Assembly: GCA_951406725.2 (NCBI GenBank)
Contig: OX597816.1
Span: 159,960,001 to 160,024,000 of the forward strand
Length of the DNA stretch: 64,000 nucleotides
Origin: Octopus vulgaris
Taxonomy: Eukaryota
Reading direction: 5' to 3'
A program made the translations under genes and the position numbers. Positions within the stretch are counted from its first letter, which is position 1; each line of letters begins with the position of its first letter. Below the pieces are notes generated by a model. The model made no database searches. It saw only the letters and a program-made list of their open reading frames with translations, and was not told where the DNA came from. Of the stretch, positions 4,111 to 63,585 are shown in pieces.

Positions 4111-5713
4111 TAAACTATATATATGGCTGTCATTCATATAGATTTCATACTATTCATGTTGCATGTTATTCAATGCTGTAAGACTTGAGATATGAAATGG
4201 AGGAGAAAGGCAAAGTCTGAACAGACAATTGTTTGTAATGGTGATAAATGGTCCAGGTATTTGCCAGTTGTACTGCTTGACTGCCTATTAGCTATCCACA
4301 TTGCAAGATGCAAGACAGCACAGTTAAAAGGAATCTGAAGGGAGGACTGTTGGATCTCTGTTTCGTGTGAATGGAACAGTACATATTTCATTTTCCTACC
4401 ATTCATCCTTCCTGGAACCACACCTGTTTCACACAGTCTCAGTATCATCTTTTACCTCACTGAATGCCTCCTTCACCTGTACACAATAACTCCCTTTTTC
4501 CTTTCCTTCTGTTCATCTCCCATTGTTTCCACTCCTATATACATCTGACTTCGTCCCCAGCACTTTGCATCTCTTACACACACAACCCCTACACACTTCA
4601 CATTATCTTTGCTGCCATCTATTATCTCTCTGATCCTCTCCTACTTCCTCCACTTACTCCTCCAACTGATATTCATGACTGACCATACTGCCATCCATGG
4701 CCACCACTCTCTACATTCCTCTTATTCAATCTTCTGTACCACTTATATTCACCTCCCTGTAATTTGAGGCTATACCTTGACACATATTCACCACTCACTT
4801 CTCCAACTGAGCCATTTATCTCTCCTATGCAAGACACCTGCTCTTATCCCTCTATCAGACTTGAACCACCTCCTTCAATACTACAGCCCTCAGTTGAGGA
4901 GTCTTGTCTTGCAAATTACTTAGGTACCTCACTAGTGCTGTTGCCACATAAAAAGCACCCAGTTCACTCTGTAAAGTGATCGGTTTTAGGAAAGGCATCC
5001 AGTCATAGAAACCATGCCAAAGCAGACTTTGGAACTTCATGCAACCCTCTGGTTCACCAGCTCTGGTTGAACTATCTAATCCATACAAGCATGGAGAACA
5101 GATGTTAATTGATGAGTATGTCTAACATGTCCATAGAGACAATAAGCCTTATTCAAAAGCACCTTTATATGCCTTCTTACAAAACTGTTAAAGGATTTCT
5201 GCAGTAATTTGTCAGCACAGATTCACTCCTTCATGGCAATTTTGTTGGTCTTGGTCCTTAGTTGTTTGTTAAACTGAATATTTCTTATCAAGGTGTCTCT
5301 CTGTGAATACCTCATACAGCTAATTTATCTGTGTCTATTGTATGACTGAGTAAAGACATTGTCAACTGTGTCACTCTGTCTCTTTAACCTTCACTTTGCA
5401 GGAACCAAAAAAAGTAGGTTCCAAGCTTGTGAACTGAGTTAACTCAGTTTAAATATGTTGTTACTTTCTGGAATTCTCCACATTTCATATGATACAGGAT
5501 GCACATTTTATTTCTACTGGCTAATTCAGTATCTACACATTAGTATGTAAATAATTAAACCAGTACAGTGAGGGTTAACTGAACATTTTAGAGTGATTTA
5601 TTATTCAAGCATGTCCAGCAAGCTGCTGTGTGATTTGATGTCACATTGTATTATCATGCACTAACTAGCTGCATGGTTTTCTACCTGGTAAGTAGGATAA
5701 TTGATTTACTAGC

Positions 5714-8700
5714 ATCATCATCATCGTTTAGCGTCCGCTTTCCATGCTGGCATGGGTTGGACGGTTCAACTGGGGTCTGGGAAGCCAGAAGGCTGCACCA
5801 GGCCCAGTTTGATCTGGCAATGTTTTTACGGCTGGATGCCCTTCCTAGCGCCAACCACTCCATGAGTATAGTGGGTGCTTTTTACGTGCCACCGGCACAG
5901 GTGCCAGGCGAGTCTGGCAAACGGCCACGATCAGATGGTGCTTTTTATGTGCCACCGGCATGGGGGCCAGGCGAGGCTGGCAACGACCACGAACGGATGG
6001 TGCCTTTTACGTGCCACCGGCACGAGGCCAGTTGGGGCGGCGCTGGCAATGGCCACGAATGGATAGTGCTTTTTACGTGCCACCGGCATGAGGTCAGTCG
6101 GGGCGGCGCTGGCAACGGTCACGTTCGGATGGTCCTCTTACATTCCACCGGCACTGGTAACTCAGCTGCAATTTCCATTGATCGATTTCGATTCTGATTC
6201 TAACTTGCCTCAACAGGTCTTCACAAGTAGAGTTTTGTGTCCCAAGAAGGGAAGGTATGCATAAGTGGGCTGGCTACATCCCATGTAGAGGGCCACAGGT
6301 TATGGTCTCACGTGTCCTGCCGGGTCTTCTCACGCACAGCATACTTCCAGCGGTCTTGGTCTCTAGTCATTTCCTCAGTGAGACCTAAAGTTCGAAGGTC
6401 GTGCTTCACCACCTCGTCCCAGGTTTTCCTGGGTCTGCCTCTTCCACAGGTTCCCTCAACCACTAGGATGTGGCACTTTTTCACACAACTATCTTCATCC
6501 ATTCTCGCCACATGTCTATACCAGCGCAAACGTCTCCCTTGCACACCACATCTGATGCTTCTTAGGTCCAGCTTTTCTCTCAAGGTACTTACACTCTGTT
6601 GAGTATGAATACTGACATTACACATCCATCGGAGCATACTGGCTTCATTTCTTGCGAGCTTACGCATATCCTCAGCAGTCATGGCCCATGTTTCACTGCC
6701 ATGTAGCATGGCTGTTCGTACACACGCGTCATACAGTCTGCCTTTTACTCTGAGCGAGAGGCCTTTTGTCACCAGCAGAGGTAAGAGCTCTCTGAACTTT
6801 GCCCAAGCTATTCTTACTCTAGCAGTTACACTTTCAGCACACCCGCCCCCGCTGTTGAATAAGGTTGCTGAATAAAGAAAATGAAGAATGGGATAAAGAG
6901 AGTCTGCCGAATGTTGACCCAACAGAGGGACCAGCTATCCGAGTTGACAGTTCCTTGGTAGTTAAGGCAATTAGAAGCATGAAGACAGGGAAAGCCCCAG
7001 GCCCATCAGGAATCACTGCAGAGATGCTCAAAATATCTGGTAACGGAAGCTATCAACTATTTCTAGTTTTTCTCCCTGGAAAGTGACAGAGGTTGGTCTC
7101 AGAGCACTTTCAATGTTTATTGTTCCTGAGCATCTGCCACATACAAAAACCATCTTCCTAGTTAGCCTTCCTTTGACATTGCTGCACCTCTTATGTGTCC
7201 ATAGCTTACACTTGGTGCATCTTATAGAGTTTCTACCTACACCTTTTTTACAGATCGAGCAGCGCCATCTACCTGAAGGAATTTGTGATTTGTCTACCTT
7301 CCTACTTATTAGTACTTTGGTTTTAGCTAGATTGACTCTAAGGCCCTTCGATTCTAATCCTTGCTTCCACACCTGAAACTTCTCCTCCAGTTCTGATAGT
7401 GACTCAGCAATTAGAGCAAGGTCATCAGCATAGAGGAGCTCTCAAGGGCATCCTGTCTTGAATTCCTCCGTTATTGCCTGGAGGACTATGATAAATAGGA
7501 GGGGGCTGAGGACTGAGCCTTGGTGGACCCCTACCTCTACCCGGAATTCTTCACTGTACTCGTTGCCAACCCTCACCTTACTAGCAGCGTCCCTGTACAT
7601 GGCTCGCACAGCTCTCACTAACCTTTCATCTATCCCTAGTTTCCTCATTGACCACCAGATAAGGGATCGGGGGACCCTGTCGAAGGCTTTCTCCATGTCA
7701 ACAAAAGCCAGGTACAGGGGCTTATCTTTGGCTAGGTATTTCTCCTGCAGCTGCCTTACCAGGAATATAGCATCAGTGGTACTTTTCCCTGGCACGAACC
7801 CAAACTGCATCTCATCTAAACTAACTCTCTCTAATTAGTTGGGCTATGACCCTCTCCATAACCTTCATCACCTGATCCAACAGCTTGATACCTCTGTAAT
7901 TATTTGTATCTAGGGTGTCACCTTTACCTTTGTAGCAGTTGACTATTATGCTGCTACACCAGTCATTGGGTATGACTCCTTCGTGTATCACCTGATTAAC
8001 TATACGGGTGACTAGGCTATAGCCGACACTACCAGATATTTTGAGCATCTCTGCAGTGATTCCTGATGGGCCTGGGGCTTTCCCTGTCTTCATGCTTCTA
8101 ATTGCCTTAACTACCAAGGAACTGTGAACTCGGATAGCTGGTCCCTCTGTTGGGTCAACATTCGGCAGACTCTCTTTATCCCATTCATTTTCTTTATTCA
8201 GCAACCTTTCATAGTGGCGTCTCCAAACCTCTCTCTTTGCATCCTCATTTAGCGCAAGTGAATCATCTTCCATGCAAACACACTTCTCTCCTACCACATC
8301 ACAATTCTCTCTCACACACTGTCTTGCAACGCGAAACACCTCCAGTCTTTGGTCCTCACGGCGCAGAACATTGGCAAATTTTTCTTATCTGCTTCCCCTC
8401 TGGCTCGATAGACCTGTCTCCTAGCTTCCCTTTTGGCAGTCTGATATAATTCCCTGCTACCACCATTCTTCCAGTCCTTCCAAGTCTGTCTCTTTTCTCT
8501 AATAGCCCTGTCTACAACACTGTTCCACCACCACGTTACCTTGGGACGAGAGGGGACTTTGCACCAGCCACAGATCTGGTCAGTGACTCTCAGCAGGTTG
8601 TCCCTTAGAAACGTCCAGTTGCCTTCTACCCCATGTGATACTCTCTCCCCTTCTACTTCATCAAAGGCTTCAAGTAGCATGTCCCTAAATCTCTGTCCAT

Positions 8701-9632: not shown

Positions 9633-10048
9633 ATCGTACGACAGGCACCCATGCTAACCCCCTTTGCTTGCGAAGACATGTTGGGGCAAGCGAAATCGAA
9701 ATCGAATTGAACCAGCCAGGATCCCTGGTCTGGTGGTACGTAAAAAGCACTATCCGACTCGTGGCCGATGCCAGCACCGCCTCGACTGGCTTCCGTGCCG
9801 GTGGCACATAAAATACACCAATCCGACCGTGGCCATTGCCAGCCTCGCCTGGCACCTGTGCAGGTGGCACGTAAAAAGCACCACTACACTCACGGAGTGG
9901 TTGGCGTTAGGAAGGGCATCCAGCTGTAGAAACATTGCCAGATAAGACTGGAGCCTGGTGCAGCCTTCTGGCTTCCCAGATCCCCGGTCGAACCGTCCAA
10001 CCCATGCTAGCATGGAGAACGGACGTTAAACGATGATGATGATGATGA
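9633..10048 (+). mobile_element. RTE 3' UTR fragment (young-looking, CpGs intact)
   Basis: Tandem units plus GGAAGGGCATCCAGCTG...ACGGACGTTAAAC(GAT)n. Confidence 0.85.
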
Positions 10049-17262: not shown

Positions 17263-19206
17263 CGCTGGGCATAATGCTTAGTGGCATTTCGTCTGTCTTT
17301 GCGTTCAGAGTTCAAATTCCGCCGAGGTCGATTTTGCCTTTCATCCTTTCGGGGTCGATAAATTAAGCACCAGTTGCATACTGGAGTCGATCTTATCGAC
17401 TGGCCCCCTCCCCCAAAATTTCGGGCCTTGTGTCTAGAGTAGAAAAGAATATAGTCTACATATACATCCAGTAATTACGCAGCCTCCAGATACTTCATCA
17501 TCTAGCCATTGAGGGTGCCTCCACCTCTGAGGTTCTCTATAGAAAATTTCAAGTAACCACCATCAACTAAACACAATTCATGCGTATTATAAACCTGACC
17601 CTAAAATTACCATTGGACACTGTACAGTAATTAGATTCATTCATAATTATTTCCCTTTTGGACATTGTATAGTAATTAGATTCATTCATAATTATTTCCC
17701 TTGTTTTCACTCTCGATGCTTAATTTACACTCCCAGAAAAAGTATACTTTTCTTAAGTGCATTAAAACTGCTGTTTATCTTATATTTTTTACTTGTTTCA
17801 GTTGTTGAACTGCGGACATGCTGGGGCACCACCTTAAAGGGTTTAGTCGAACACATTGATCCCAATACTTATTTTATTAAAGCTTGGTAATTATTCTATT
17901 AGTTTCTTTTGCTGAACTGCTAAGTTATGGGAACTAACACATACAATGAATCTCCTCCACAGCTGTTTCTTTCCATCATCTAGCACAGTGGTTCACTATC
18001 ATTTATTGCTTATGGACCCTGATTTCTTCCTGTTTTACTCAAGGAGTGGGGTAACCTCACAACCATTCAATGTCTAAAAACTCCTACACATACACAAACA
18101 TATGTATACATATACAGCCTACGATAAATGAGTATGGAGATGTAATGGCCTAGTGGTTAGGGCAGCAGACTTGTGGTCGTGGGATTGCAGTTTCAATTCC
18201 CAGACTGGGCATTGTGAGTGTTTATTGAGCGAAAACACTGAAGCCCCACGAGGCTCCGGCAGGGGGTGATGAAAGATATGTATATATAGGCACAGGAGTG
18301 GCTGTGTGGTAAGTAGCTTGCTTACCACCCACATGGTTCAAGGCTCAGTCCCACTGCATGGCAGCTTGGGCATGTGTCTTTTACTATAGCCTCAGGCCGA
18401 CCAAATCCTTGAGTGGATTTGATAGACAGAAACTGAAAGAAGCCCGTATACATATATAATGTTCCTTTCAAACATTGAGGCAATGACCGAGACCATTGGT
18501 ATATGTCGTGCTTCAGAAGACCCATCAAGCTGAGCAAAATTGCAGTCGTGGCAGATACGGGTCTCGTGCAAATTGGCACCTGTGCTGGTGGCACATAAAA
18601 GCACCTCGGTGTCACATAAATGGCATCCATGCCGGTTTCACATAAAATCACACATTACATTCTCGGAGTGGTTGGCATTAGGAAGGACATCCAGTCGTAG
18701 CAAACCATACCAAATCAGACTTGAGTCTGGTGGTGTGCCAGCCCGGTCAAACCGTCCAACCCATGGACAACAGACGTAAAATGATGATGATATATATCAC
18801 CATCATTTAATGTCCATTTCCCATGCAGGCATGGGTTGACAGGGGGCTGGCTATGCAGAAGACTGCACTAAACTTCACTGTCTGTTTTGGCAGAGTTTTT
18901 ACAGCCGGATACTCTTCCTAACACCAACCAGCACACATGGATGTCTCCTTGTCTTGACATTGTATGGCATTTGTAAACAAGTATCACTGTCATTCAAGCT
19001 GTATCTACCATTTAGAATATTCTAAATGGCAGACACAGCAATAGGAAGGGTGTCCAACCCACAGAATATCTGCCTCAAAGAGTTTTGTCAGACTAATGCA
19101 AGCGTGAAGAATTGGATGATAAAATGATGATGAAGTTAGAGGGATGGTAGCCATAACTGGTGGAGAAAAAGAAAATCTTTACATATGAAGGCAGTTTCAA
19201 AATTGT

Positions 19207-19649: not shown

Positions 19650-22600
19650 CTGAAAAACAAAAAGGAAACATAGTTTTAATAACACAGCAAAACTCATTAA
19701 TTATCAAGAAATTAAAACATCAAGAAAGTAGAACCAGCATTTATCCTAAGACAAGGAAGGAGCAACACAAATGGCCACACAGCTAAACTAAATATTTTAT
19801 CTTAATTACTTTAGGTACGAGCATAGCTGTGTTTTTAATAAGTTTGTTTTCCAGCCATGTGGTTTTAAGTTCAATCCCACTCGTGGCACCTTGGGTAAGT
19901 GTCTTCTAATATAGCCTCGGACTAATGAAAACCTTGTGAGTGGATTTAAAAGATAGAAACTGAAAGAGGCCTGTCTGTGTGTCTCTCTCTCTCACTCACT
20001 CACATTCACACACATGTGTATAACACAGACACGGATGTTTGGTAAGAAGTTTGCCTTCCAACCATATGATTTTGGGTTCAGTCCCACTACATGGCTCTTT
20101 GGGCAAAGTGTTTTCTAATATAGTCGTGAAGTGAAGTCTTGTACTGGGATTTAGTTGACTGAAACTGGAAGAAGCCTGTTGTGTGTATAAGTGTGTGTTT
20201 TACTATCACTCTGCCTTGATGTCATGTGATAGTTGTAAGCAGTGTTTCTAATCTTCTGAGACATGTCTAATCATGGGGAGATATTACTTTGCTTGGAAAC
20301 AGATGGGGTTAGTAACAGGATGGGCCTCTGGTCATAAAAAAATCTGCCCCAATAAACTTCATATGATAAGTCGTACACAGCACTTGTCAATGTTGAAAAC
20401 TACTGAATGCTTTGTGGCATTTTGATAATAATAATGACTCTTGTGGCTTCTGATAATGACTCTTGTGGCTTCTGATCTTAACTGATTGGAAGTGTTATCA
20501 CGTACATTGTTTTTTTTTGGTATAAAAGATGGGCTACAACAAATATTCTGCTCAATACCACAGATCTGCTTGTCAGTTGTTTGACCGTAACCAGTTGAGT
20601 TACGGTCCCTTAGTGGCTGACGATATGTGCATCTCTGATCACGAGCAGAAGTAGTGGGGGAGCATCAAAGCCATGTGTTGAGAGGGATTCTTTGGGGTTT
20701 GAATAATTCACCCCTGGAAACATGAGTGTTTTGTTCAACATCCTTAAACAACCCTTATTCAGGGACCTTTTGAGTGGAATGGGTTACTCGACCAGAAGAA
20801 AATTCTAACTGGGCTCCACCTGCAAGGTTATGTGCTGTTTATCTTGATATAGGATCACCATGTCGTGCACATATGGTTGTGATGCATGTGCCTGGTGTAC
20901 CCTTATCAGATGGGTAGTCATGATGGGTATACTGGGCTTCGTATATTTTACCCCAGTGTCACTTTGATGGCATGGACTACTCTCTCACTCAATAATAATG
21001 AAATTATTGTATACAGTGCTCAGGTGCACCACATTTTGTCTAGCATGCTAACAAGCCTGCCAGCTTGTTATCTTAATAATAATAATCCTATACTTGGAAA
21101 AAAAGGTATTGATTTGGGTCAAGAACAATGCCCTCATTCAGTCTATGTCTGCACAGAAAGTGAATGTGAAACAAACAAATAAAAGAATAAAAGCTGCAAT
21201 GAAAATTTTCCCAACTAACCTGCCAGGCAACACCTAATTTAGCTATTTCTCTTCCGGAAAGACCATCAGTACGTACTGCAATTTCTGAACATTTTACACC
21301 ATAATCAAACTGTGCTACCTTTAAACGTCTGCAACAAAAGAAACAAAAAAAAAATCAATTGAATAAAATGACAATTTCTTACATAAGCAGAAGGCCAGAT
21401 ATTTGGAGACAAGGGTTACTTGATTAACTTTTTGGTATTGTGATTATTCTGTCAAATGTTATGCTTAGCTGTGGAGGGAAACTGTGGATGAGGTAGATGC
21501 AGGAAAACATGGGATGAAGTAGTGAAGTATCTGGTCAGTTTGAACATAAAACAGGCAGAGTACTTTTGACCGGATTAAAAGCTAAAGGGTAATCTTTGAA
21601 CATTGGGCCTCATGGAGTGACTGAGACCTCTGGCGATATGCTGTGCATGAGAAGATGATATTTCTTTTTTTTATTTTACATCAAAATAAAAATCAAATGG
21701 AAATTGTAGTTGTGATACCCGTGCCGGTGGTATGTAAAAAGCACCATCCAAATGTGGCCGATGCCAGCGCTGCCTGCCTGGTGTCCGTGTCGGTGACACG
21801 TAAAAAGCACCAACCGATTATGACCATTGCCAGCTTCCCCTGGCACCTGTGCCAGTGGCACGTAAAAAGCACTGACAACACTCACTGAGTGGTTGGCATG
21901 AGGAAGGGCATCCAGCTGTAGAAACACTGCCAGATCAGACTGGAACCTGGCGCAGGCTCCCGGCTTCCCAGACCCCAGTTGAACCGTCCAACCCATGCTA
22001 GCATGGAAAACGGACATTAAACGATGATGATGATGAGAAAACTGGTTAGACCAAGTGAAATCGTAGTTGGTAGCTATGCCGGTGTCATGTAAATGGCACC
22101 CATGAATCATAGTCATGGTTGTTATCAGTGCCATATAAATGGCACCCATGGTTGTAGCTGGTGCCATGTACATGGCACCTATGAATTATAGTCATGCTCG
22201 TTACCAGTGTCATGTAAAAGCACCCATTACACTCCTGGAGTGGTTAGTGTTAGGAAGGGCATCCAGCTTTACAAACCACGCCAAATCAGACTGGAACCTG
22301 GTGCGGCTCTCCAGCTCATATCAAACTGCCTAACCCATGCCAGCATGAAAAGTGGACGTTAAATTATGATGGTGATCTTATTATTTATGTTTCAGAATGA
22401 TATTGTAGAGTATGTATGAAAAGCCAGATCTGGCCAGTTTGAACATAAAACTGATAGAATAGTTTAAACCAGATATGGCTGGTTTAAATGCTAAAGGGTT
22501 AAATCAACTCCAGTGTTTGACTGATCTGCTAGAATTAGCATCCAAATTCTTCCCAATCTACATCCGACTATCTTACGAAAGAAAATACATATTGAATGAT

Positions 22601-25600
22601 ATAGTCCAACATGTGTGTGAGTGTGCTACCCTTGTCTTGACATGGCACACTAACTGTAAATAAATATTACAGTGAAGCAGAATCATTCATCTGCAATCCT
22701 CCATGTAAACAGCTCTGGCTATTGTTCTGTTTTAGTTCATCTGCTTAGAAACAGGTGAGGGTTAGTGATAGAAAGAGCACCCGGCCACACAAAATCTGCC
22801 TCAACAAATTTCATCTCACCCATCCTAGCATGGAAAAGATGTTAAAACAATGAAGTCAAAACATGAAACTGGTCAAGGCTTGGTGGATTGCTTCCAACAC
22901 CACTCCTCATGATCCATTCAGGTCAGTCACAATACCAACTTTCTGTCTTTGGATTACTCTCTTCTTAGTAACCATGGGAACAAAAATTTATTTATAAATT
23001 AGGGATATCATATCCCCATGGCATTAACAATTGTTTATACTTTACACCTGCCCCCAGTACTCCTACTGACATGCACCCCCACCTCCCACATCAACTCTAC
23101 AGTTGCTATCTTTTTAGCTTCCACTCCCCTTTACCCAGAAACCACAGGCCTACATCTCCACTTCCTTCTGTGACTGTACAACAGCACACACAATTCTTCT
23201 TTCTTCTCTTTCTCAATAAATAGTCTGACTTTTAACGATCTGAATTATTCTTTTCCTTACAACTACATATATTTTTGAATAACCACAACTTTTCTAAAGA
23301 AATTTGTGAATAGAGTATTAAGCCTTTGACATATACACATTCATTTGTGTTTGTGTATGTCATATGCTTAACCATGTTCATGTGAGTTGGACAGACACAC
23401 AATACCGTTAACTTATTCACTGCTTCATTCCTATAACGTGTTTCCCCTAACACCCAAAGTGCTGATTTTCAAACAGCATATCTCCAACCGATCGTGGGCG
23501 ATAAAGCACCATCCGAATGTTGCCAGCGTCGCCTTGGCTGGCTTCCGTGCCGCTGGCACGTTAAAAGCTCCAACTGATCGTGGCTGATGCCCCCCCCCCA
23601 CTGGCACCTGTGCAGGTGGCACATATGGACAGACACACAATACAGTTAACTTATTCACTGCTTCAATCCTATAACGTGTTTCTCCTAACACCCAAAGTGC
23701 TGATTTTCAAACAGCATTTAAAATCTAACCTCATTACATATCAAAATCTCTCTTCGACACATCTCTCAATACCTTTGGTACCTGGTACTTTTCTCAGATC
23801 TAGTGTCAGTCTTTCTCCTAAGTACACTCTATATATCAAACAAATTATATTTAACTCATCATTCATCTCCAATCTCTCTAAATTCTGAGCCACACCCACA
23901 CACAAATACATACCTCTTGCCTTCTGTGGCTGGTTTCAACACAAACTCATCAAAGTATTGTCTAACCATACGTTCCCTCTCAGACAATGTGGGTAAGACA
24001 AATTCTACCATTTCGTCAAGACGATCGTTAATGGCCCAATCAAATTGTTCAGGTTGATTACTGGATAAGACTAACATAAACCTGAAAAATAAAAATACGA
24101 CTCATATTAGAATAATTAAAAATTATAAATAGACTCATCTAGAAATGCCTCAAAATCATAATAGCATGAAGGTTTCTGATCTGAAAGTCAAGAAACTGAG
24201 AAACAGTGACTGTGAGTTGTATAAACCTCTGAATGATTCAACAGTTCAGTTCTACCTCACTACCCATATTTTTTTCCTGCAGATACAGGTCAGGCATCAC
24301 TCTCATCAATATCACCAGACTAGGAGGGCCACAAAGGTCAGAACACTGAATCTCTTCCCTTTACTATTTTAGTGGTTGTGGTTACCAAAGTATTTTATCA
24401 GCAGTAAATAATCAATATTGCCACTGATTCTGTCACATGCCCTTTGTATCTGCTTTCATTTAAATACAATAGGTAAATAAAAATCGAATTTATACTTTAT
24501 TAAATACTAATACATAAAATTTTATTCTGGAAATTACAAAGAAAAATAACCTCTCTCTCTTTCTATCTTGTGTGTGTGTGTGTGCAATATGGATGTTGAT
24601 ATTTCACCTGTCACTGAGTGAAGTGTTGATAATGTTTATGTTATTTTTTACTAAGGTGGCGAGCTGGCAGAGTTGTTAGCATGCTGGGCGAAATGCATAA
24701 CCGTATTTCATCTGCCGCTACGTTCTGAGTTCAAATTCCGCCAAGGTCGACTTTGCCTTTCATCCTTTCGGGGTCAATAAATTAAGCATCAGTTACGCAC
24801 TAGGGTCGATGTAATTGGCTTAATCCATGTCCATGTTGTCCCCTCTATGTTTAGCCCCTTGTGGGTAGTAAAGAAATAAGATAATGTTTATGTTATGATC
24901 TGTGATTTCAAACACCTGTGGAATTTTAAAATCTTTTACCTGTTAAACAGGCGTGGTATGGCAAAAAGGAAAAGCATCTGACTGCAAGATCCTGCCCAAG
25001 CTATGATAGCACAGAAAAATGGATGTTTGAACACATTCCCATGGGGGACAAAGGATGCATGCAGTAGCAAATTAAATGAAACAAGTATCACTTGTTGTTA
25101 GTTTAATGGTGCCAGCTGGCAGAAACGTTAGCACGCCGGGCGAAATGCTTAGCGGTATTTCGTCTGCCGCTACGTTCTGAGTTCAAATTCCGCCGAGGTC
25201 GACTCTGCCTTTCATCCTTTCAGGGTCAATGAATTAAGTACCAGTTACGCACTGGGGTCGATATAATCGACTTAATCCGTTTGTCTGTCCTTGTTTGTCC
25301 TCTCTGTGTTTAGCTCCTTGTGGGTAGCAAAGAAATAGGTGGTCAAGTTTTGTTATTTTAGTATGAACAATAAGCCTGTACATATCTGCTATGTGCTCTT
25401 GGGAAAGATGCCTAAGGCAGTGGCTCAGTGCATGTGTCTGTAAAGTACCACACAGGGGTATAGGCATTGCTGTAGGCAACAAGAGATGGTACTATATTGT
25501 TGGTAAAGATATTCTTAGCTTGTATGGATGAATTCAAAACACAATCAAGGACAATTCCAGGGTAAATGGCTCTTGGTGATGCCTCACAGAAAAATTTAAT

Positions 25601-39100: not shown

Positions 39101-42100
39101 ACAGGAGACCGAGACCCTTGGAGACAAGCTGTGATTGAGAAGACCCGGCAACTAATGCGAGATCGCAGCCACGCATGCCTGGCCCAGTCTAAGAGTACTC
39201 CTGATATGTGTATATATGTATATATATATATCTGCATGTGTGTGTGTGTGCAGTCATTTACTGAATTATAAATTAAATTTCATGTATTAAATTAGTATCT
39301 TTATGAGTTGGAAATCATTTACTTTTTATAACAAATAATTTGTGTTTTTAGGTTTAGTCTTGGTCAGTACCACCTGAAAAACCTACCCAAAGGCTACGTC
39401 TCACCAACACATGTATACAATATTAGTTACCTTTCTTAAGTGCTTCCTGTCTGGCTGTAGACTCTTCTTGTTTTTTCAGATTTTCTTCATTCATTCTTGC
39501 CTGAGAATAGATTAGAAAAGAATGTTCTAATACATACACACACACATATATATATCATCATCGTTTAATGTCTATTTTCCATGCATGCATGGGTAGGACA
39601 GTTGACAGGAGCTGGCCAGGTAGAAAAACTACCCTAGGCTAATGTGTCTGCTTTGGCAGGGATTTAATGGCTGGATGCCCTTCCTGACACCAACCACTCT
39701 GCAGTGTGTATGTGTTTGTCTTGACATTATATGATGGTTGTAAGCAAGTATCACCATCATACAAATGATGTTCCAGTCTCCTGTGGAAAACATGTCCGGC
39801 CATGGGGAAATATTACCTTGCTTGGAAGTAGGTGAGGGTTGGTGACAGGAAGGGCATCCAGCCATAAAGAATCTGCTGCAACGAATTCTGTTTGACCTAT
39901 GCAATGACAGAAAAGGTGGACATTAAATAATGGTAAAGATGATAACATTGTCATCGTCATTGTTTTAATATCAAATCTGAAAGGGTCAAAGCAAGGTCAA
40001 CTTTGGCTGATTTGAATTCAGAACTTAAAGATGGACAAAATGATGCTAAGCAATCTGCCCAGCATGCTAACGATGCTGCCAGTTCACCACCTTTTTATAT
40101 AATTAATGACTTGTAGGCATACAGTATTTCGTTATGCAACCACAATATATTATATCATTATCATCGTTTAACGTCTGTTTTCCATCCTGGCATGGGTTAG
40201 AGAGCCAGAAGGCTGCACCAGGCTCAATTTGATCTGGCAAAGTTTCTACAGCTGGATGCCCTTCCTAGCGCAAATCACTCTGAGAGTGTAGTGGGTGATT
40301 TTTATGTGCCACCAGCACGGGAGGCAGTCAGACAGGCCTGGCATTGAACACGTTTGGATAGTGCTTTTTACATGCCACTGGCACGGGGACCAGTCATGGG
40401 GTACTGGCATCAGCCATGATTGAATGGTACTTTTTACATGCAACCAGCATGGGAGCCAGTCAGGTGGCACTGGCAATGGCCGATTTAAATGCTAAAGTTA
40501 TTTTCATTACATTCATGAGTATTTTTTAAATTACTTGAAATAAAGAGGATGTATTTCAATGAAGTACAGAGTAACAAAAGGATTAAAGGAGATTAACAGT
40601 TTACCTGCTGAGCTAGCTGTTCATCATAACGTTTACGAGCTAACTGATCCTGGTATTGTGCTCTTTGCTGATACTGACGAGTTTCTTCAGCCATTGATTT
40701 TCTCTTTTCTTCTTGTATAACTCTCTGTTCTTCAATCTTCTGTTGGGCAACGTGAGCTTCATATTCCTGAGAAAAAAAAAATTATTGAAATAAGAAGAAA
40801 AAAAACAAACCATTCAACTATGTGACATGAACAATAACATTTTTCTCAATTGGGTGATTATTAGATTCTAGCTATTGTCAGAGCTGTTAAACCTCTGAAC
40901 AACTATGATCAAATGTTTTCCAACCATGGCCATCCAATCTCTTTCTAAATCAGAGACTACATTCTCTGATGTATTGTTTTTTATTATCATTTTTAAGTGA
41001 GCTGGGAGTAATGTGTGGGAAATTTGGCTGTTATTTCTGGCAAGCTAGATCACTTAGCAGCTTCCTTGACTCAAATTAATTGTAACAGGTGATAATGCAT
41101 TCCAAACAAGCAACTTCAAGGGCAAAAAAAAAAAAGTAGCAAAAAAATTACATTGTGGATTACATAAATATACATTATAGAGGATGGACAGGTGTCGTTA
41201 CCTTTGTTGTCAGGTGTTCTGGTGGAATTTTGAACCCAACCCTTTATTTGATTAATAGTACTCTGTTCTCATTCTTAAGGTAAGGTGTTCATTTTTGCTG
41301 ATGTTATTTTTTCTGTTGATATTATTTCACCAAGTCCTTGCCTGGGATTGAACTTAGAATCCAACAGTTAGTAGCCCATACAGGCATATATGCATAGTGA
41401 TAGTACCAGTTCTACATTCTTTACCAGTAACACTACCAACACATAGCCACCTGACTAAAATCCTTCGACAGATTTGTATTATTCTTTTGTGTCCCAGGTA
41501 GTACTCCAGAAATCCTTCTTCAATAGAATTTTTTTCCTTCATATTCTATTATTTCTATTTGTTGTGTCTTGTGGTCATTGTTGTATCCTGTGTGTTTCCG
41601 AATTCTTCCTTGTATCTCTCTTTACTCTTTTACTTGTTTCAGTCATTTGACTGCGGCCATACTGGAGCACCGCCTTTAGTACTTATTCTTTGTAAGCCCA
41701 GTACTCATTCTATCGGTCTCTTTTTTGCCGAACCGCTAAGTGACGGGGACGTAAACACACCAGCATCGGTTGTCAAGCAATGCTAGGGGAACAAACACAG
41801 ACACACAAACACACACATACATATATTTATATACTAGCAGTATCGCCCGGCGTTGTTCGGGTTTGTAAGGGAAATAACTATAAAGCATTTTTAGAGAGTT
41901 ATGGAAAAAAAATGGTAAATTTTTTTTTAGTTAAAAAGGTCGAGTTGCGTCCCTTAGACAGTCTGTGGTTTGTGTTTCTGATTCTCGACCCCATGTCGAA
42001 TTTATCGATTTTTTTCAGAACTGGGGGAACTTTTCAAAATTTTCGCTGCGTTAGTTTTGAATTATGACATTGGGCTATGTGTGTGTCAAGTTTCATCAGA

Positions 42101-45100
42101 ATCGGTTGAAAGCCGTGGTCAGGGTGAGGGTACAACCTAACAGACACACAGAAACACACACAGACAAACTGCTGTTTATATATAGAGAGATACATATATA
42201 CGACAGGCTTCTTTCAGTTTCCGTCTACCAAATCCACTCACAAGGCATTGGTTGGCCCGGGGCTATAGCAGAAGACACTTGCCCAAGATGCCACGCAGTG
42301 GGACTGAACCCGGAACCTTGTGGTTGGTTAGCAAGCTACTTACCACACAGCCACTCCTGCGCCTATCCCGCATGTTTTTGAATTCTTGTCACCGAATTTT
42401 TCCCTTTTGTATTCAGCAGTCATTGTTGTATCCTGTGTGTTTTCAACTTCTCATTGTTACATGTTATATCCTGCGTGTGTTCGAAACCTCTTTGCCACTG
42501 TTGTATCTTATGTTAGCAGTTTCGAACATTCCTTGTCACCACTGTTATGACTTCATTGCATGTTTTGCATGTTCTGATTTCAATTTCAGGGAAAGCACTA
42601 AGATGAATTCACGAAAATCAAGTGAAAAATGTCATGGCACAAGACACCTGAAGAAGGCTGGAGCATACAACAGTTGAAATGTAGTGGAAACAACAATCAA
42701 GATGAAGACAACAGTCTGACCAAATTAAATTCACTTCTTTAAATTTCCACCTCTGTTTCATTCTTTACTATAAGGATTTTACTTTTCAAAATATGTTTAC
42801 ATGGAATTCACCCCATGGCCAGACATATTTTCACAGAAGATTGGAAATAAGGGACACACCTTCTATGATGGTGACACTTATTTTCATTTGTCACACAATG
42901 TCAAAACAATGAGACACTAACACACACATACCTATATATATATAGTGAGACGTGGGCCCTGAATGTAGAGGGCATGCAAAGGTCAGAAAGGAATGAGGCT
43001 GGTATGCTCTGCTGGATGTGTAAGGTAAATGTACATGTTCGACAGAGTGCTAGTGTTCTGAGACAGAAGTTGGGCATAAGAGAGAAGACTGTGCTGGTTT
43101 GGTCATGTGATGCAGAAGGACACCAACAGCTCTATAAAGAAGTGTCAATCTCACACAGTAGACAGAACATGTGGAAGTGGGAGACCCAGAAAGACATGGG
43201 ATGAAGTACTGAAGGATGAACTCAGGATGCTGAACCTTTCAGGTGAGATGACAAAGGACCGAGATGTTTGGCGTCTTGCTGTACTCAAGAAGACCCATAC
43301 TCCACAGCAGAAGTGCTAAGACTGGTCCCTCTGGTAGCGAAAAGCACTTGTGGTGGTGTCACATAAAAGTACCTGTGTGGCACCACATAAAAGCACCCAG
43401 CTGTAAAAAACATGCCAAATCAGACAGGAGTCTGGTGCAGTTCCCTGACCCTGGTCAAACTGTCCAACCCATGCTAGCATAGACAACGGACATTAAACGA
43501 TGATAGCCAGCGCCGCCTCGACTGGCTTCTGTGTCGGTGGCACGTAAAAAGCACCATCTGAATCGGGGCCGAAGCTAGTGCCGCCTCGACTGGCTTCCGT
43601 GCAGGTGGCACGTAAAATGTACCAATCCGACCGTGGCCGATGCCAGCCTCGCCTGGCACCAGTGCAGGTGGCACGTAAAAAGCACCCACTACACTCACGG
43701 AGTGGTTGGCGTTAGGAAGGGCATCCAGCAGTAGAAACATTGCCAGATAAGACCGGAGCGTGGTGCAGCCTTCTGGCTTCCCAGATCCCCGGTTGAACCG
43801 TCCAACCCATGCTAGCATGTAGAACGGACGTTAAACGATGATGATGATGATGATGATATATAAACACACACACACATGAGTGAGTGGACAAATGAAAGAG
43901 GGGAGCGCTCAACACATTTAGAAGGAGTTACATGTATTATTTAATAGTTTGATTTGGTTCTGTGCTACTTCATGTTTTGCAGGCTCCTAATGGGAGCCCA
44001 ACTCCTTTAGGCTATGGAATACCAACCTGAAAGAGTTGGGCTCACGTTAAGAGCCTGTGAAACTTGAAGAACTATTTTAAATAATATATGGGGCTGAATC
44101 TGAGACCGCATATTTGGGAAACAAGCTTCTAACCGCACAACCAAGCCTGCACCCAGTATGTACTGTCCAGCTTCTCCAGCACACATCAAAATCATCATTT
44201 AACATATGACTCCTATATTGGCATGAGTTGGAAGTCAGCATCAAGCTCCAATGTCTGTTTTCGCATGGTTTTGATGACTGGATGCCCATTCTAATGCCAA
44301 CATCACAGAGCATGCTTGGTGATTAAAAAAAAATTTTTTTTGTGGTACCAGCACTGGTGAGGTCACCAAGAAACATGCAGAGCAAGACAAGTCTGTTCAA
44401 TGAAATGCGAGGGATTCCCTTTCTTGGTTGGCCTGATCTGTGTTTTGTTTGTAAATTAAAAGTAGACACAAAACAGTTGCTCTACATTTGGTTTATGAAA
44501 CTCAAAAGAGCCTCTAGTTGGTCACCGAAACTGTTAAAAATAGTAACCAAATTTCCCTCAAAACATACTTTACCATCTTTGAAAAATAAAAAAAGATGAC
44601 ACATTGGGTAATGTAGTCCTAGATATACAAACAGATGTGATAGTCATAGTTGAAATGCCTTTTAAACTTAAGTATGCTGGCTCAGCACTGACCTAGGGCT
44701 AGACAACATCAGAACGCATTCAATCTTCTCTAATAATAACATTAACTAAAAACATACAGCTGTACCATACATTCACCTTTGCTACACAAATAAAGCAATT
44801 TTCAGCTTTAGCACAGGAGTGAAGTAACATAACTATTGGGTTGTCTGGAAAGTTTGTGCCGATTTTTAAAGGAAAGAAAAAGGTCACTAAATATTTGCCA
44901 TTACATTTTTAATCAACCAAATATGAACCATTTTGTTGCACAATGCGTTTCCATCTTTCCTTTAACTTAAAAATACCCTCTTCCCAGAATTGTGGTGGTT
45001 TCATGGCAAACAATTCATCAAGGTATCTTTTTACGTCATCCAAGGAATTGAAATTTTTACCATTAAGACTATTCTTCAGAGACCTAAATAAGTAGAAATC

Positions 45101-48100
45101 TGAAGGAGCAATATCTAGTGAATATGGAGGGTGGGGTAACACATCCCAGCCGAGCTGCAGCAATTTTTGTCTGGTTCTAAAAGCATCAAGTGCTGAAAAT
45201 GAACTTTCTCATCTTACATTTTAAAGGGTTACAGAATTAACACAGGTTATAGGAACATAAACCTTCTTCTACAAAAAGATAGCTTAAACTGTGCTCTAAA
45301 TGGAGGTGTAGTCAAATCCTATGTTATGGACTCAACCATGTTCTAAAGTAAGTTGAAATGTAAGCTGCTATAAATCGGTACAAACTTTCTGGACAACCCA
45401 ATATTATAGAAGCAATGGGTATACCTTCATTTCTTTCTGGTACTTTGCTTGCAACGTTGCTTCTTGCATTTTAGTCAAATCCAAAGCTTCCCTTGAGAAT
45501 TCTAGAAAAATAAAAACAGGTATAGATATAAAAACCAAAAATATATTATGTACTGGCTCTCATAGCAGAATCACCACCGGAACTAGAAAAGAAATTTCGG
45601 GTGTGGAAGCAAGGGTTAGAATCAAAGGGCCTTAGAGTAAATGTAGCAAAGACCAAAGTTATAGTAAGCAGAAAGGCGAACTCAGCACACACCCCCTCGG
45701 GCAGGTGGCCCTGCTCGATCTGTAGGAAAGGTGTAGGCAGAAACTCCATAATATGTACCCAGTGTAAGCTATGGACGCATAAGAGGTGCAGCAACATCAA
45801 AGGGAAATTAATTGATAAGATAGCTTTCATGTACGGCAGATGCACAAGGACAATAGACACCACAGATACTCAGAAAACAGATTCCATCACACTCCAGGGG
45901 AAGAAAATAGAAGTAGTTGATAGTTTCCGCTACCTGGGTGACCAAGTTAGTAGTGGAGGTGGATGCTCAAAGAGTGACACCACTAGAATACGAATAGCCT
46001 GGGCAAAGTTTAGAAAGCTCCTACCCCTACTGGCGACAAAGGGTCTCTCGCTCAGAGTGAAAGGTAGATTGTATGATGCATGTGTGCGAACTGCCATGCT
46101 TCACGGTAGTGAAACATGGGCTGTGACTGCAGAGGACATGTGTAGACTTGAAAGAAAGGAAGCTAGCATGATCTGCTGGATGTGTAATGTCAGTGTGAGT
46201 GCACGACAGAGGGTAAGCACCCTGAGAGAAATGCTGGACATAAGAAGCATCAGATGTGGTGTGCAAGAGCGACGCTTGCGATGGTATGGTCATGTACTGC
46301 GGATGGATGAGGAGAGATGTGTGAAGAAGTGCCGCTCCCAAACAGTTGAAGGTATCAGGAGGAGAGGAAGACATGGGATGAGGTAGTCAAGCATGACCTC
46401 AGAGCGGTGGGCCTCTCAGAGGCAATGACGAAGGACTGAGATCTCTGGAGATATGCTGTGACTGCAAAGACCCGGGCTGCTTCCTGCACCAGTCCCGCAT
46501 AGCCCCTGCCCATTCAGAGTAACTTGGATTCCAGAACATCCCGCTGTGCTTGAGGAGACCTATTGAGTCAAGTACATGAACATCGAAATAAATATCAATG
46601 GAAACAGTAGTTGTGATACCTGTGCCGGTGGCACATAAAAAGCACCATCTGAACGTGGCCGATGCCAGCGCCGCCTCGACTGGCTTCTGTGTCGGTGGCA
46701 CATAAAAAGCACCATCCAAACGTGGCCGATGCCAGCGCCGCCTCGACTGGCTTCTGTGTCGGTGGCACATAAAAAGCACCATCCAAACGTGGCCGATGCC
46801 AGCGCCGCCTCAACTGGCTTCTGTGCCGGTGGCACATAAAAAGCACCATCCAAACGTGGCCGATGCCAGCTCCGCCTCAACTGGCTTCTGTGCCGGTGGC
46901 ACATAAAAAGCACCATCCAAACGTGGCTGATGCCAGCTCCGCCGTGACTGGCTTCCGTGCCGGTGGCACGTTAAAAGCACCAACCGATCGTGGCCGATGC
47001 CAGACTCCCCTGGCACCTGTGCTGGTGGCACATAAAAAGCACCCACTACACTCGTGGAGTGGTTGGTGTTAGGAAGGGCATCCAGCTGTAGAAATACTGC
47101 CAGATCAGACTGGAGCCTGGTGCAGCCCCTGGCTTCCCAGACCCCGGCTGAACCGTCCAACCCAAGCTAGCGCAGAAAACGGACGTTAAATGATGATGAT
47201 GATGATAATGTAATAACATGTCATTGGATGACAAAACGTGAAATACTTGAAGACAAAATGATACTAAATGGCTACAGACTGTTCATGTTATGGAGTAACT
47301 AAATGCTCTGACAACCTAAATACAATATTGAATCTGTTATCTGGCTTTCAGAAATTTGGGAATGCTGTGCAGAACTGTGCAATACCCTGTATTGAGTAAA
47401 CAGACCCTGTTTTTGAAGGTGGTTAATTTTGCATATGGAGTGTTAAAAATAGTTTTGTTCTTTACTTTTTCATGTGAATTGACATATCTTGCTTTTCTGT
47501 ATAAATTTGTATCTGTTAAATAAAATCATGTTTTTCATTTTTCTTCATTTAATTTCCATTCAATAAACATTATACTATATAATATGATATATTACAAGAA
47601 TTTTAATTGGATTAATATCAGATCCTGTTTTAGAAGTGTATTAATCTGAGTCTGTTAAATACTAGTTAGCTTTTTACTTTGCATAGTTTATTTTCTATAT
47701 TTTAAGTATACATTTAGACCATTTCCAGAAAACTAGAAAATCCAGAATTCTGGTACACTTCAGGTCCCAAGGTTGCCAGATAAATGGTCTAAGACATTAT
47801 AATGTTATAAGATCTAAACATAACATGATAGCTATTATGTAGACCCTCCTTTGCTCAATTTTAACAATGCATCTGTACATTTGTGTATAGGCTGGAGAAT
47901 CATTTTTTGAGAAAGACAAAGCAGCTGCTCATATATACAAGTCTCTACTTGCCACACCTTTGAAGTTAATCTAACGGAATGGTTTTCAACCATTTTTTAC
48001 CTACAGACCCCTTTGATTAGTACCTTTATTCTGGTGGCCCCCATAACCGTGTGAGGTTTACTCTTTACTTGTTTCAGTCATTTGACTGCGGCCATGCTGA

Positions 48101-52487: not shown

Positions 52488-52902
52488 GGTGGCGAGCTGG
52501 CAGAAACGTTAGCACGCCGGGCGAAATGCTTAGCGGTATTTCGTCTGCCGCTACGTTCTGAGTTCAAATTCCGCTGAGGTCAACTTTGCCTTTCATCCTT
52601 TTGGGGTCGATTAAATAAGTACCAGTTATGCACTGGGGTTGATATAATCGACTTAATCCCTTTGTCTGTCCTTGTTTGTCCACTCTATGTTTAGCCCCTT
52701 GTGGGTAGTAAAGAAATAGGTATTTCGTCTGCCGTTACGTTCTGAGTTCAAATTCCGCCGAGGTTGATTTTGCCTTTCGTCCTTTCGGGGCCGATTAAAT
52801 AAGTACCAGTTATGCACTGGGGTCGATATAATCGACTTAATCCGTTTGTCTGTCCTTGTTTGTCCACTCTATGTTTAGCCCCTTGTGGGTAGTAAAGAAA
52901 TA
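52488..52902 (+). mobile_element. Family A SINE with duplicated 3' half, upstream of ATAD3
   Basis: Same head+body+body structure as 16289-16700; GATATAGAGTTTTTAATGCAT repeated on both flanks (about 52465-52485 and 52903-52923) as a probable TSD. Confidence 0.88.
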
Positions 52903-55892
52903 GATATAGAGTTTTTAATGCATTTTGAGAAGGTTTCAAAGTCAAAAATGCAGTAACTATTATTGTGTCCCAGTTACCAATAATGAAATTAGAACCATGC
53001 ACACCCTCTCAATTATGTATCTGGTAGTATTCAACTCTAAAAGATTTGAGACATTCGCAAAACACTCGTAGGGTTACTGTGGGTGATTTGGAGGCGAAAC
53101 ATTAAAACAACCAAGCACTTTCCTGAACATCATAGTGTGAGATAGAGCATTCACGAAGTCAAAGAATTTCTCGTTACCGGTCTAGCGGTACCTCTCAAAT
53201 GCCATAAGCTGAGAAATGTAATCTACCGAAAGATTACAGTATTGCAGTTTCTGTTGTGCTGTCTCTCTTTTTTACTTGTTTTAGTCATTTGACTGCGGCC
53301 ATGCTGGAGCACCGCCTTTAGTCGAGCAAATCGACCCCAGGACTTATTCTTTGGAAGCCTAGTACTTATACTATCGGTCTCTTTTGCCGAACAGCTAAGT
53401 TACGGGGACGTAAACACACCACCATCGGTTGTCAAGCAATGCTGGGTGGGGGGACACAGACACACAAACATATACACATACACAAATATATACATATACA
53501 TGACAGGCTTCTTCCAGTTTCCGTCTACCAAATCCACTCACAAGGCTTTGGTTGGTCTGAGGCTATAGTAGAAGACACATGCCCAAGGTGCCATGCAGTG
53601 GGACTGAACCCAGAACCATGTGGTTGGTAAGCAAGCTACTTACCACACAGACACTCCTGCGCCTATTACATTATTACATTTTGGCACATCTACACAAGTG
53701 TGCTCCCCATCACCGACTTGGTTTTCTCATAACTTCCAGTAAAATGGCTATTTTTTTAATGAAATTTTCTATTAATATGCTTTCATTTAGTGTAGATTCC
53801 GATGTTATCAGAATTATTTTTTTGTGAAAAACTTTTTCTGGGGCTGAGGAGATGAGTTTCGGAAAAGTCACTCGAGGCGACTTTGTTTCTTCATAACTTT
53901 CAGAAAAATGGGCATTTTTTAATGAAATTTTCTACAAATACCTTTCAGAGTGTGTAAATCGGAATTTAGCCTGTTTACCACGTCTACTCACAAGGCTTTG
54001 GTCGGCCCGAGATGATAGTAGAAGTCATTGCCTGAGGTCCCATGTGATTAGGAAGAAGCTCCTTTATTTTATGATATTGGCTATGGAAGCTGTACATAGA
54101 GGGGACAACACAAGGTGGGGACAAAAAAAAAAAACGAATTAAATATAATGAGAAATGGAATGAAGCCGTTCGGCCCTACACACATATATACATGACGGGC
54201 TTCTTTCAGTTTCCGTCTACCAAATCCACTCACGAGGCTTTGGTCGGCCTGAGGCTATAGCAGAAGGCACATGCCCAAGGTTTCACGCAGTGGGACTGAA
54301 CCCAGAATCATGTGGTTGGGAAGCAAGCTTCTTAACCCACAGCCACACCTGTGCCTAATTGAAAAAAGAAGGAAAATAGTGGGTTCGTACACACACATAC
54401 TGGCGCACATCACATTTGTGTAGGTATGCCTACATTTCTTTATTTCTCTCTTCTTCCCCTCACAAACACCAAATCTTCTAGTTAAAGCGTTTCATTGAAC
54501 TTCGGCATGTTGACTTTTAAGATAGGCGCAAAACTAAAATCGTACAATTTTGCATTCAAGTCCTTGACTGGAACCTTACTTTTATTGACCTCAGTGGGAA
54601 TCAAAGCAACGTTGACCCAGATTTTAAAGAAGGATAAATAAAGGTATAAGATAAAATACAACTATGAAATTCGACACTTCTTATCTCGTCCAACTCAGTT
54701 TAAGAGAGGAGCACCTCACAGTGGTCACTCAACCTGCTAGAAATAGCAGCTAAATCTCTCAAATCATCACTTCTGTCTTGGAGGAAGAAAAGAATACACA
54801 TTGGATAATAGAATCCGTTTTGAGGAGGATAAAAATAACTCGATTTAAAACAATTGGGGAGATTTTCATATTGAAACCACATCGATCTGGTTTGGCTGTT
54901 GGAACTGGATTTCCATTTGGCAATAGCCACTGCTTCCTATGTTTATTGTTGACATAGGCTATTCATTTCTCATCAGCTATTACAAGTGAAACCACCCTTT
55001 AATTGAAAACACATTGAAAAGTTTCATCGATCAAATTGTTTGTTTTTGAAAAACAACAACAAAAAACAAAACAAAAAAATACCGGGATTTTTATTAGCCT
55101 CGTTTACTAAACCACTAAGTTCAAGGACGCAAACAAACCAATACTGGTTGTCAAGCAATGGTAGAAGGAAAACACAAAATGTTACGTATTGAGCGAGGGA
55201 AGTCGCTAATGAAAATGTCAACACTTTAATAATTGGACTGAGTCATTAATCCAAAGACTGTGAAATGTCTCTGGTACAGTAAGTCTGTGCATGAACATCT
55301 TCATGTCCAAGGTTTTATTCAGATGCGTAACAAACGAACTCATACTATGAGCACACAATGTTCAATAAAGTTATCTGTGACTGAAGAAAAAGGTTCTGAA
55401 TATCTTGCCATGTTCCATGATGACAGTGAGAAAATAGGAAGAATTCAAACTACAAAAATTACTTTCAGACAAGCACTAGGCGTAGAATACCATAGCGAGT
55501 TGCTGGTAGGGCAGAATATCGAATAGGTGTGCTTGACTTTCTCTCCGAAAATGACCTTGTCGTGACTAAGGGAAGACAAAAATTCAATCGGAATACGCTC
55601 TTAAAGAGGGTATATGATTCTAATGCCCTCCTGTGTGACGTTTAGCAGTTACGCCTTGTATGCTAGCAAAGGATGTTCTAGAACACTCGACAGAGGAGAT
55701 AACTGTAGTTGACTCCCAACGAATATTTTGCGGGCTACGAACCTGCTTCAAATAGCGTTGCCTACACGAACATTCATTCATTCATACATACATACATACA
55801 TACATACATACATACATACATACATACATACATACATACATACGTACATACATACATACATACATACATGCATGCATGCACATATATATGTG

Positions 55893-63054: not shown

Positions 63055-63585
63055 GTATGGCTCAGCACTAGCACAGAAAGGCTCGGCACTGCATGGTTCA
63101 CCACTACATTACTCAACAATACATGGATAGGCACTGCACGGATCAGCACTGAATAGCTCAACACTGCATTGCTCAACACCGCATGGATCAGCAGAGCAAG
63201 GCTCAACACTGCGTGAATCAGCACTGCGTGGATCAGCACTGCATGGATCAGCACTGCATAGCTCAACACTGCATGGATCAACACAGCATGGGTCAGCATT
63301 ACATAGTTCAACACAGCAAGGCTCAAGACGGCATGGTTGAACACTGCATAGCTCAACACTGCATTGCTCAGCACTGCAAGGATCATCATTGCTTGGTTCA
63401 TCAAAGCAAGGCTCAGCACTGCATGGATCAGCACTGCATGGATCAGCACTGCATGGATCAGCACTGCATGAATCAGCACTGAAAGTTTCAGCACTGTATG
63501 GATTAGCGCTGCATGGATCAGGTTTGCAAGGCTCACCACTGCATGGATCAGCACTGTATGGATCAGCATTGCATGGATCAGCACT
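63055..63585. repeat. 15-bp minisatellite (consensus CAGCACTGCATGGAT), about 35 units
   Basis: Directly visible; explains the repetitive ORFs (QHCMD, HGSAL, LIHAV)n. Confidence 0.92.

Follow-up and report, generated by a model that had tools for sequence, protein, structure and literature searches.

Within a 64,000-nt stretch of Octopus vulgaris DNA (contig OX597816.1, positions 159,960,001 to 160,024,000 of the forward strand; hereafter the window) lies a tandem array in the 3′ untranslated region (3′ UTR) of a long interspersed nuclear element (LINE) of the RTE type. The array sits between the stop codon of a 5′-truncated LINE open reading frame (ORF) and a tail of about 145 nt that ends in (ATG)n, and Tandem Repeats Finder (TRF) places it at 46620-47043 with a period of 67, 6.4 copies, 91% matches and a score of 659. 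A 20-nt core, GGTGGCACRTAAAAAGCACC, begins seven times in the array, at 46627, 46694, 46761, 46828, 46895, 46962 and 47024, i.e. at spacings of 67, 67, 67, 67, 67 and 62 bp. These positions bear out an earlier note, made from the sequence alone, which had described a 67-bp unit and seven modules at 46621-47045. Across the window, the core is matched 27 times at up to three mismatches, compared with 0.01 matches expected from 100 shuffles, and 34 times at up to five mismatches.

The modules are of three types: five 67-bp A units are followed by one 62-bp B unit and a terminal C module. Each A unit combines the potential for a UGUGCC-GGU-GGCACA hairpin with an A-rich stretch, the sequence GCACC and a second hairpin, GCCAG...CTGGC. 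The arms of this second hairpin, which had also been pointed out before, are found in every A and B unit, and the hairpin is shorter in the B unit, whose core contains GTTAAAAG. Downstream, the tail features a hairpin, CACTC-GTG-GAGTG, at 47049-47061, a conserved box, TTAGGAAGGGCATCCAGC, and a terminal stem composed of CGTCC (47154-47158) and GGACG (47181-47185), which is followed by TTAAA. The same order, i.e. leader, A(n)-B-C modules, a shared tail of about 145 nt and (ATG/GAT)n, describes the 3′ UTR of the whole family, in which amplification is limited to the A unit. The array was also considered as coding sequence and rejected: the open frames that cross it on both strands follow from the repeat being free of stop codons.

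The host element can be characterised through its relatives. The 284-codon frame upstream of the array is 89-94% identical to 136 other places in its own 2.8-Gb genome, some of which keep open frames of up to 1,096 aa. One full-length family copy (L126:1228-4362, minus strand) has a 1,045-aa ORF with an Exo_endo_phos domain (35-190), an RVT_1 domain (564-764, E 2e-28) and a PHD-like finger (780-823), and downstream of this ORF come the same leader, five modules, the tail and (GAT)n. Two features of the RTE clade are found in this family, namely a single ORF that joins an N-terminal apurinic/apyrimidinic-type endonuclease to a reverse transcriptase (RT) and a 3′ end formed by a short microsatellite rather than poly(A), here (ATG/GAT)n in the window as well as in the fetched loci. 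At E<=1e-10, a database search with the ORF returned 348 relatives, of which the 120 best share 41-53% identity with it; most of these 120 reside on contigs of 3-4.6 kb. Architecture, element size, microsatellite end and a published description together fit an RTE-clade LINE, in agreement with the earlier assignment.

The description in question concerns RTE-2_OV, an RTE-clade LINE from the octopus brain transcriptome with a 3,327-nt ORF, a zinc finger and a 3′ UTR of about 600 nt that consists mainly of 'microsatellite' (Petrosino et al. 2022, PMC9115989). Judged by that description alone, RTE-2_OV would belong to the family discussed here, and its 'microsatellite' is probably this kind of array, glimpsed in passing; the account of the element is given without the unit structure, module types or fold that we provide for this family. 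Other work touches on the subject more remotely: one study is chiefly about RTE 5′ parts in short interspersed nuclear elements (SINEs) rather than this array (Kojima 2018, PMC5786205), and another appears to offer repeat statistics only (PMC13282606). A literature search over titles and abstract openings yielded no paper on the 67-bp array or on a pseudoknot in a cephalopod RTE 3′ UTR.

Table 1. Coordinates of the LINE copy at the array and of two further copies in the window
Feature	Position	Strand	Basis or remark
LINE ORF, C-terminal 284 codons, to stop codon	45532..46386	+	5′-truncated copy; open-frame listing
3′ UTR leader, stop codon to array	46387..46620	+	same leader before the arrays of loci L126 and L128
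Five A-type 67-bp units	46621..46955	+	amplified unit type; private variants common to neighbouring units
B-type unit, 62 bp, core GGTGGCACGTTAAAAGCACC	46956..47017	+	short GCCAG-ACTCCC-CTGGC hairpin
C-type terminal module, abuts tail directly	47018..47043	+	module type kept in single-module families
Shared 3′ tail	47044..47189	+	sequence reading; box count; ends of relatives
(ATG)n terminal microsatellite, element 3′ end	47190..47207	+	same end in other copies and relatives
Second copy of the same family	5700..6934	-	ORF end, leader, five modules (one degenerate), tail, (GAT)n
5′-truncated three-module copy (A-B-C), tail, (GAT)n	43506..43850	+	adjoins the 3′ end of a different RTE subfamily

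Copy number and turnover of the array

The number of modules differs widely between copies of the element. In a sample of 864 kb, made up of the window, the 200 kb to its left and three further stretches of 200 kb each from elsewhere in the genome, 130 modules were found in 78 arrays, of which 45 have one module, 19 two, 12 three, one four and one, the array at 46621, seven; degenerate modules are undercounted at the threshold used. The commonest elements in the sampled DNA have one to three modules. This distribution rests on 464 kb (C3 and C8), which hold all 130 modules as well as all 96 occurrences of the tail box, and neither modules nor tail boxes were found in C1:50000001-50200000 and C17:30000001-30200000. 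The family is very unevenly spread across the genome. Among 11 copies that were selected by their ORF and span leader to tail, each has two to seven modules, and in loci retrieved by means of the array the number rises to 44 units or more. Variation between element copies in the number of head-to-tail units is a hallmark of a variable number tandem repeat (VNTR), and the variable copy number reported earlier holds up well. Since the last spacing stays at 61-63 bp in most of the plus-strand array-selected arrays listed, it is the A unit that multiplies.

Comparison of the units with one another points to how this happens. Forty arrays with at least three A units, 259 units in total, were available from loci chosen by their likeness to the array or its ORF; two of these loci, L017 and L027, overlap, meaning that a few arrays are counted twice. 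Units within an array differ at a mean of 4.8 positions per 67 nt, compared with 6.2 between arrays, and the distance within is the smaller one in 35 of the 40 arrays. Units are thus more alike inside an array than across arrays, a second hallmark of a VNTR. Adjacent units are closer to each other than units of the same array are overall in 26 of 35 arrays. At 46621, GTGTC is common to units 2 and 3, CTCAACTGG to units 3 and 4 and AGCTCCGCC to units 4 and 5. Such similarity of neighbours, together with private variants that they share, is a signature of local duplication.

Contigs assembled from sequencing runs under four organism labels contain joins across 210-341 nt of array, and the joins of 266-268 and 333-341 nt correspond to four and five units, respectively. 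The majority letters of the core are identical in contigs under all four labels.

Taken together, the array is probably a variable-copy minisatellite in the 3′ UTR of an RTE-type LINE, one that owes its length to local tandem duplication and loss of a single unit type rather than to the multimerisation of a pseudoknot. Its length would change whenever A units are locally duplicated or lost; each module would fold, at most, into the small GC-rich hairpin UGUGCC-GGU-GGCACA (about -8 kcal/mol), accompanied by a second hairpin, GCCAG/CUGGC, to which an A-rich single strand would link it. Extra module copies would probably be near-neutral passengers. There is a modest chance of an RNA-level role that belongs to the module itself and not to its multiplicity. 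The proposal that the array expands and contracts during retrotransposition survives in part: local duplication of neighbouring units is apparent, while the tie to retrotransposition is not borne out.

Variable-copy tandem repeats in untranslated regions of transposons are familiar from the 3′ UTR repeats of Ogre elements, the VNTR of SVA elements and the monomers of mouse L1, and such repeats can seed satellites. The octopus array resembles them in its head-to-tail units inside a mobile element, its differences in copy number, its local homogenisation and its occasional long blocks. In contrast to them, the octopus unit has two paralogues among the modules of its RTE 3′ UTR, and families with the same tail but only a single module exist as well. 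The long blocks are satellite-like stretches of the same module at C3:172070893-172074305 (3.4 kb or more) and C16:58581412-58583806 (2.4 kb), as well as a block with a 63-bp period and the GGTGGTAC variant at C1:217643044-217644380. They make the array a possible seed of satellite DNA, and they are also what speaks for a DNA-level role, be it as a chromatin element or as the seed of a satellite, to which the LINE context would be incidental. Such a role is extremely unlikely to account for the array, given that most arrays are short and reside inside recognisable elements with leader and tail.

Pairing and covariation in the 20-nt core

The earlier note had read each module as an H-type pseudoknot formed by the stems S1 (YGUGC/GCACR) and S2 (GGUG/CACC), a 1-nt loop L1 and an A-rich loop L3. 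This is the model tested here. That each module is a functional pseudoknot, multimerised for RT loading, nuclease blocking or catalysis, now appears very improbable, even though the model has several attractive features. Its complementarity is present in 59,679 exact cores genome-wide, L1 varies while GGUG/CACC is kept across families, and the sizes of stems and loops are feasible. Tandem pseudoknots upstream of a tRNA-like end are known from tobamovirus RNAs, and small H-type pseudoknots from luteovirus-type RNAs. On paper, the octopus module resembles these in its stem and loop sizes, its A-rich third loop and its repetition in the 3′ UTR of an RNA lacking poly(A); unlike them, it has covariation support for neither stem and no match in Rfam, and its S2 is within chance.

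The last point follows from simple complementarity. In 20,000 random draws matched for composition, the 5-nt loop found a Watson-Crick match of at least 4 bp within the following 25 nt in a fraction of 0.25-0.30, which rose to 0.76-0.85 once G.U pairs were allowed. An S2-like helix would hence be expected by chance in 25-30% of cases, and the loop complementarity of GGUG/CACC does not go beyond chance. Moreover, the CACC strand has a nested partner downstream, GUGG. When the module is folded without knots, the minimum-energy structure is the 6-bp hairpin UGUGCC-GGU-GGCACA at -8.0 kcal/mol, and nested-fold z-scores range from -1.4 to +0.8 for modules, for one unit and for the whole 3′ UTR. Searches of Rfam, which had been proposed as a check, returned no match in the whole window at gathering score and, for 46390-47210 at E<=5, only three chance-level matches (E 4.2-4.7), none of them relevant.

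Covariation was assessed by exact pattern counts over the whole genome, compared with slid (non-pairing) controls. Core positions 1 and 20, the outer pair of S2, are G/C in the 59,679 copies mentioned above, A/C in 10,571 copies in which S2 is broken (AGTG..CACC), G/T in 1,960 and A/T in 645. The A/T class amounts to 1.86 times its product expectation, an excess that is best regarded as background because the non-pairing combination A1/T19 (492 copies, with 1,560 T19 singles) reaches 1.78 times its own; most simply, this background consists of older copies with more changes of every kind. For the S2 pair 1:20, the true count of 645/1,960 compares with 492/1,560 in the slid control, a ratio of 1.04; for the S2 pair 2:19, the values are 46/1,560 and 57/1,960 (ratio 1.01) and for the S1 pair x4:c6, 47/1,202 and 11/226 (ratio 0.80). 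Compensated variants of S1 and S2 are thus no commoner genome-wide than their slid controls, which for S2 is the outcome named beforehand as telling against the pseudoknot. Modules with AGTG...CACT, cited earlier as a compensated change of S2, are indeed present at 21854-21873 (+) and 40360-40379 (-); their standing as covariation is lost, with AGTG/CACT being as frequent as the non-pairing AGTG/CATC. Whole arrays of S2-broken AGTG..CACC units exist as well, e.g. five units at 66-bp spacing on C1.

An alignment-based view agrees with the counts. Across 57 tail-anchored modules, 84.2% of cells pair, compared with 83.7% after shuffling (91 of 500 shuffles do equally well or better), and the covariation score is 0.128, compared with 0.124. 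Eight pairs are changed on both sides, a number reached in only 3 of 500 shuffles; the slid controls at -1 and +3, however, have as many such pairs or more. RNAalifold on the 57 tail-anchored sequences returned no more than three pairs (-1.82 kcal/mol), since the aligned copies are decayed, stem from several families and are too noisy to yield a consensus fold. As for S1, both of its Y/R positions are CpG sites, as is the step from L1-C to G1, and the earlier caveat that CpG decay could mimic covariation of S1 was well placed. The unit types at the Y/R pair, i.e. U-A, C-G and U.G, would be compatible with pairing by chance about three times in eight. The case guards against taking neutral decay, above all CpG decay, for RNA covariation.

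Several considerations weigh against the minisatellite as the full account of the module. The first is energetic. On their own, S1 is worth -5.4 and S2 -4.6 kcal/mol, with stack sums of -9.8 and -7.6, respectively, and a pseudoknot typically incurs a penalty of about +9.6; after this penalty, knot and hairpin come out about equal, and the stack sums put the knot within reach. For this reason, energy does not decide between the two. Secondly, as most copies in the genome are dead and decay neutrally, count tests are sensitive only to compensation that active lineages have fixed, meaning that the silence of these tests provides no support for the fold rather than a disproof of it. Thirdly, the potential to form GGUG/CACC persists across diverged families and is longer in some of them: a single-module family of the GGTGCCAC type has GGUGC/GCACC, though its S1 shrinks to 3 bp, and an 8-bp hairpin, GGUGYCAU-GNRA-AUGGCACC, is present at 22081 and 22127. 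Some helix that closes the A-rich segment may therefore matter. Fourthly, at least one module adjoins the tail in most of the module-bearing families sampled, an association that could reflect function rather than descent. Finally, the duplications may have arisen either on the chromosome or during reverse transcription, in the source RNA or its cDNA. With regard to the helix, the few differences between families give only a hint that what the wider group conserves, if anything, would be a plain hairpin closing the A-rich segment and not the knot of S1 and S2.

Reverse transcriptase recognition and possible roles of the module

A further role suggested for the array was recognition by the RT. 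Related RTE ORFs were fetched at 79 loci from metagenome contigs, and an array of the 67-bp type was found in none of the 22 related 3′ ends inspected. These relatives have short 3′ UTRs that terminate in (ATG)n, (TG)n, (TTG)n or similar repeats. Distant relatives (L159, L169 and L172) have parts of the terminal motif (GTCCAACCCGTGCTAGCGCGG ... ACGGACGTTAAACGATGATG), and several others combine a stem with CCGTTAAACGG or CCGTAAAACGG and a microsatellite. The array was accordingly rejected as recognition site, with the array-less relatives arguing against it. Instead, comparison of these ends suggests that the RT is likely to recognise the terminal stem together with GTTAAACG and the microsatellite. 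Because related RTEs do without the array, it is likely to be a lineage-specific addition.

In 'stringent' LINEs and their partner SINEs, such as those of the UnaL2 type in eel, stem-loops in the 3′ tail are recognised by the RT. The octopus family is reminiscent of them in having a conserved terminal stem, CGTCC/GGACG, before the microsatellite and a tail that is shared by many shorter elements. It differs from the UnaL2 type in that about 110 nt separate the array from the candidate recognition element downstream of it, at 47154-47185, and in that the array is absent from the related RTEs inspected.

A role that involves no knot may also be envisaged for the module. The small hairpin could display or flank the conserved strand CAYRUAAAAAG as a putative protein-binding site, with extra copies adding sites; candidate partners would be the element's own protein or a factor of the poly(A)-binding type, acting on an RNA without a poly(A) tail. 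In favour of such a site, the core, unlike the spacers, hardly varies between A, B and C units or between the LINE and single-module families, its majority letters are the same under four organism labels, and the element ends in a microsatellite, not in poly(A). Simple common descent and homogenisation within arrays could, however, explain the conservation of the core, families with one module are the most numerous in the sample, and related RTEs manage without the module. On balance, a binding site is unlikely, albeit deserving of some credence, and the minisatellite remains our preferred reading of the array.

A bolder version would have the module act as an RNA element of a LINE devoid of poly(A), whose hairpin or pseudoknot presents CAYRUAAAAAG for docking, the strand either imitating poly(A) or serving the element's own protein as a loading pad, and whose number of modules tunes RNA stability or the rate of retrotransposition. 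Such a docking site would explain the placement of modules beside the tail noted above. It is a highly doubtful proposal. Should it be true that the module acts on RNA stability or RT loading, it would provide a handle on RNA control in RTE elements without poly(A). Independently of any function, about 60,000 exact copies of a 20-mer in a 2.8-Gb genome make the identity of the module useful for repeat annotation.

Other copies and neighbouring repeats

The window contains further copies of the family, in numbers close to those listed in the earlier note. The copy that had been credited with five modules near 5875-6160 has four at 5874-6084 (-) and a degenerate one near 6135. For the remaining copies, two to four modules had been given; three are found at each of 9732-9882, 21726-21873, 40294-40445 (-) and 43536-43686, and also at 1044-1241, and the copies at 23552 and 31047/31229 are partial. 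The base before GGTG, i.e. L1, is C, T, A or G depending on the copy, as its free variation had suggested.

The copy at 43536-43686 has a neighbour of its own kind. The 3′ end of a different RTE subfamily, with a related tail and modules of 24-bp period (TRF 43340-43397, 2.4 copies), occupies 43000-43505 (+), and the three-module copy begins right where this subfamily ends, meaning that the two insertions are nested or abutting. Another related family, at 22081-22250 (+) and 18587-18660 (+), places tandem modules that are plain 8-bp hairpins before the same tail; their loops are of the GNRA type (GGTGTCAT-GTAA-ATGGCACC and AGTGCCAT-ATAA-ATGGCACC). The family with one GGTGCCAC-type module likewise has the same tail as the LINE. 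A scan of the window for tRNAs found none, and no tRNA head was thereby identified for this single-module family.

Outside the window, a sister subfamily is represented by L123 and L125 (C13:42770800-42776800 and C16:32939700-32945900), which have only B and C or C modules. Their ORF has lost the usual stop; the frame runs via the leader into the module region and ends inside or just before a module.

Three further observations concern the surroundings of the array. Just upstream of the truncated LINE copy, a 99-aa open frame at 44909-45208 (-) resembles, in its predicted translation, the C-terminal part of a transposase of the mariner/Tc1 type. At 52535-52907, a 184-bp unit occurs twice at 94% identity, and a similar sequence in reverse orientation is present in the 3′ flank of L123; this unit probably represents a separate SINE of high abundance. 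At 63086-63585, GCACTGCATGGATCA is repeated in tandem with a 15-bp unit, 33 copies and 74% matches.

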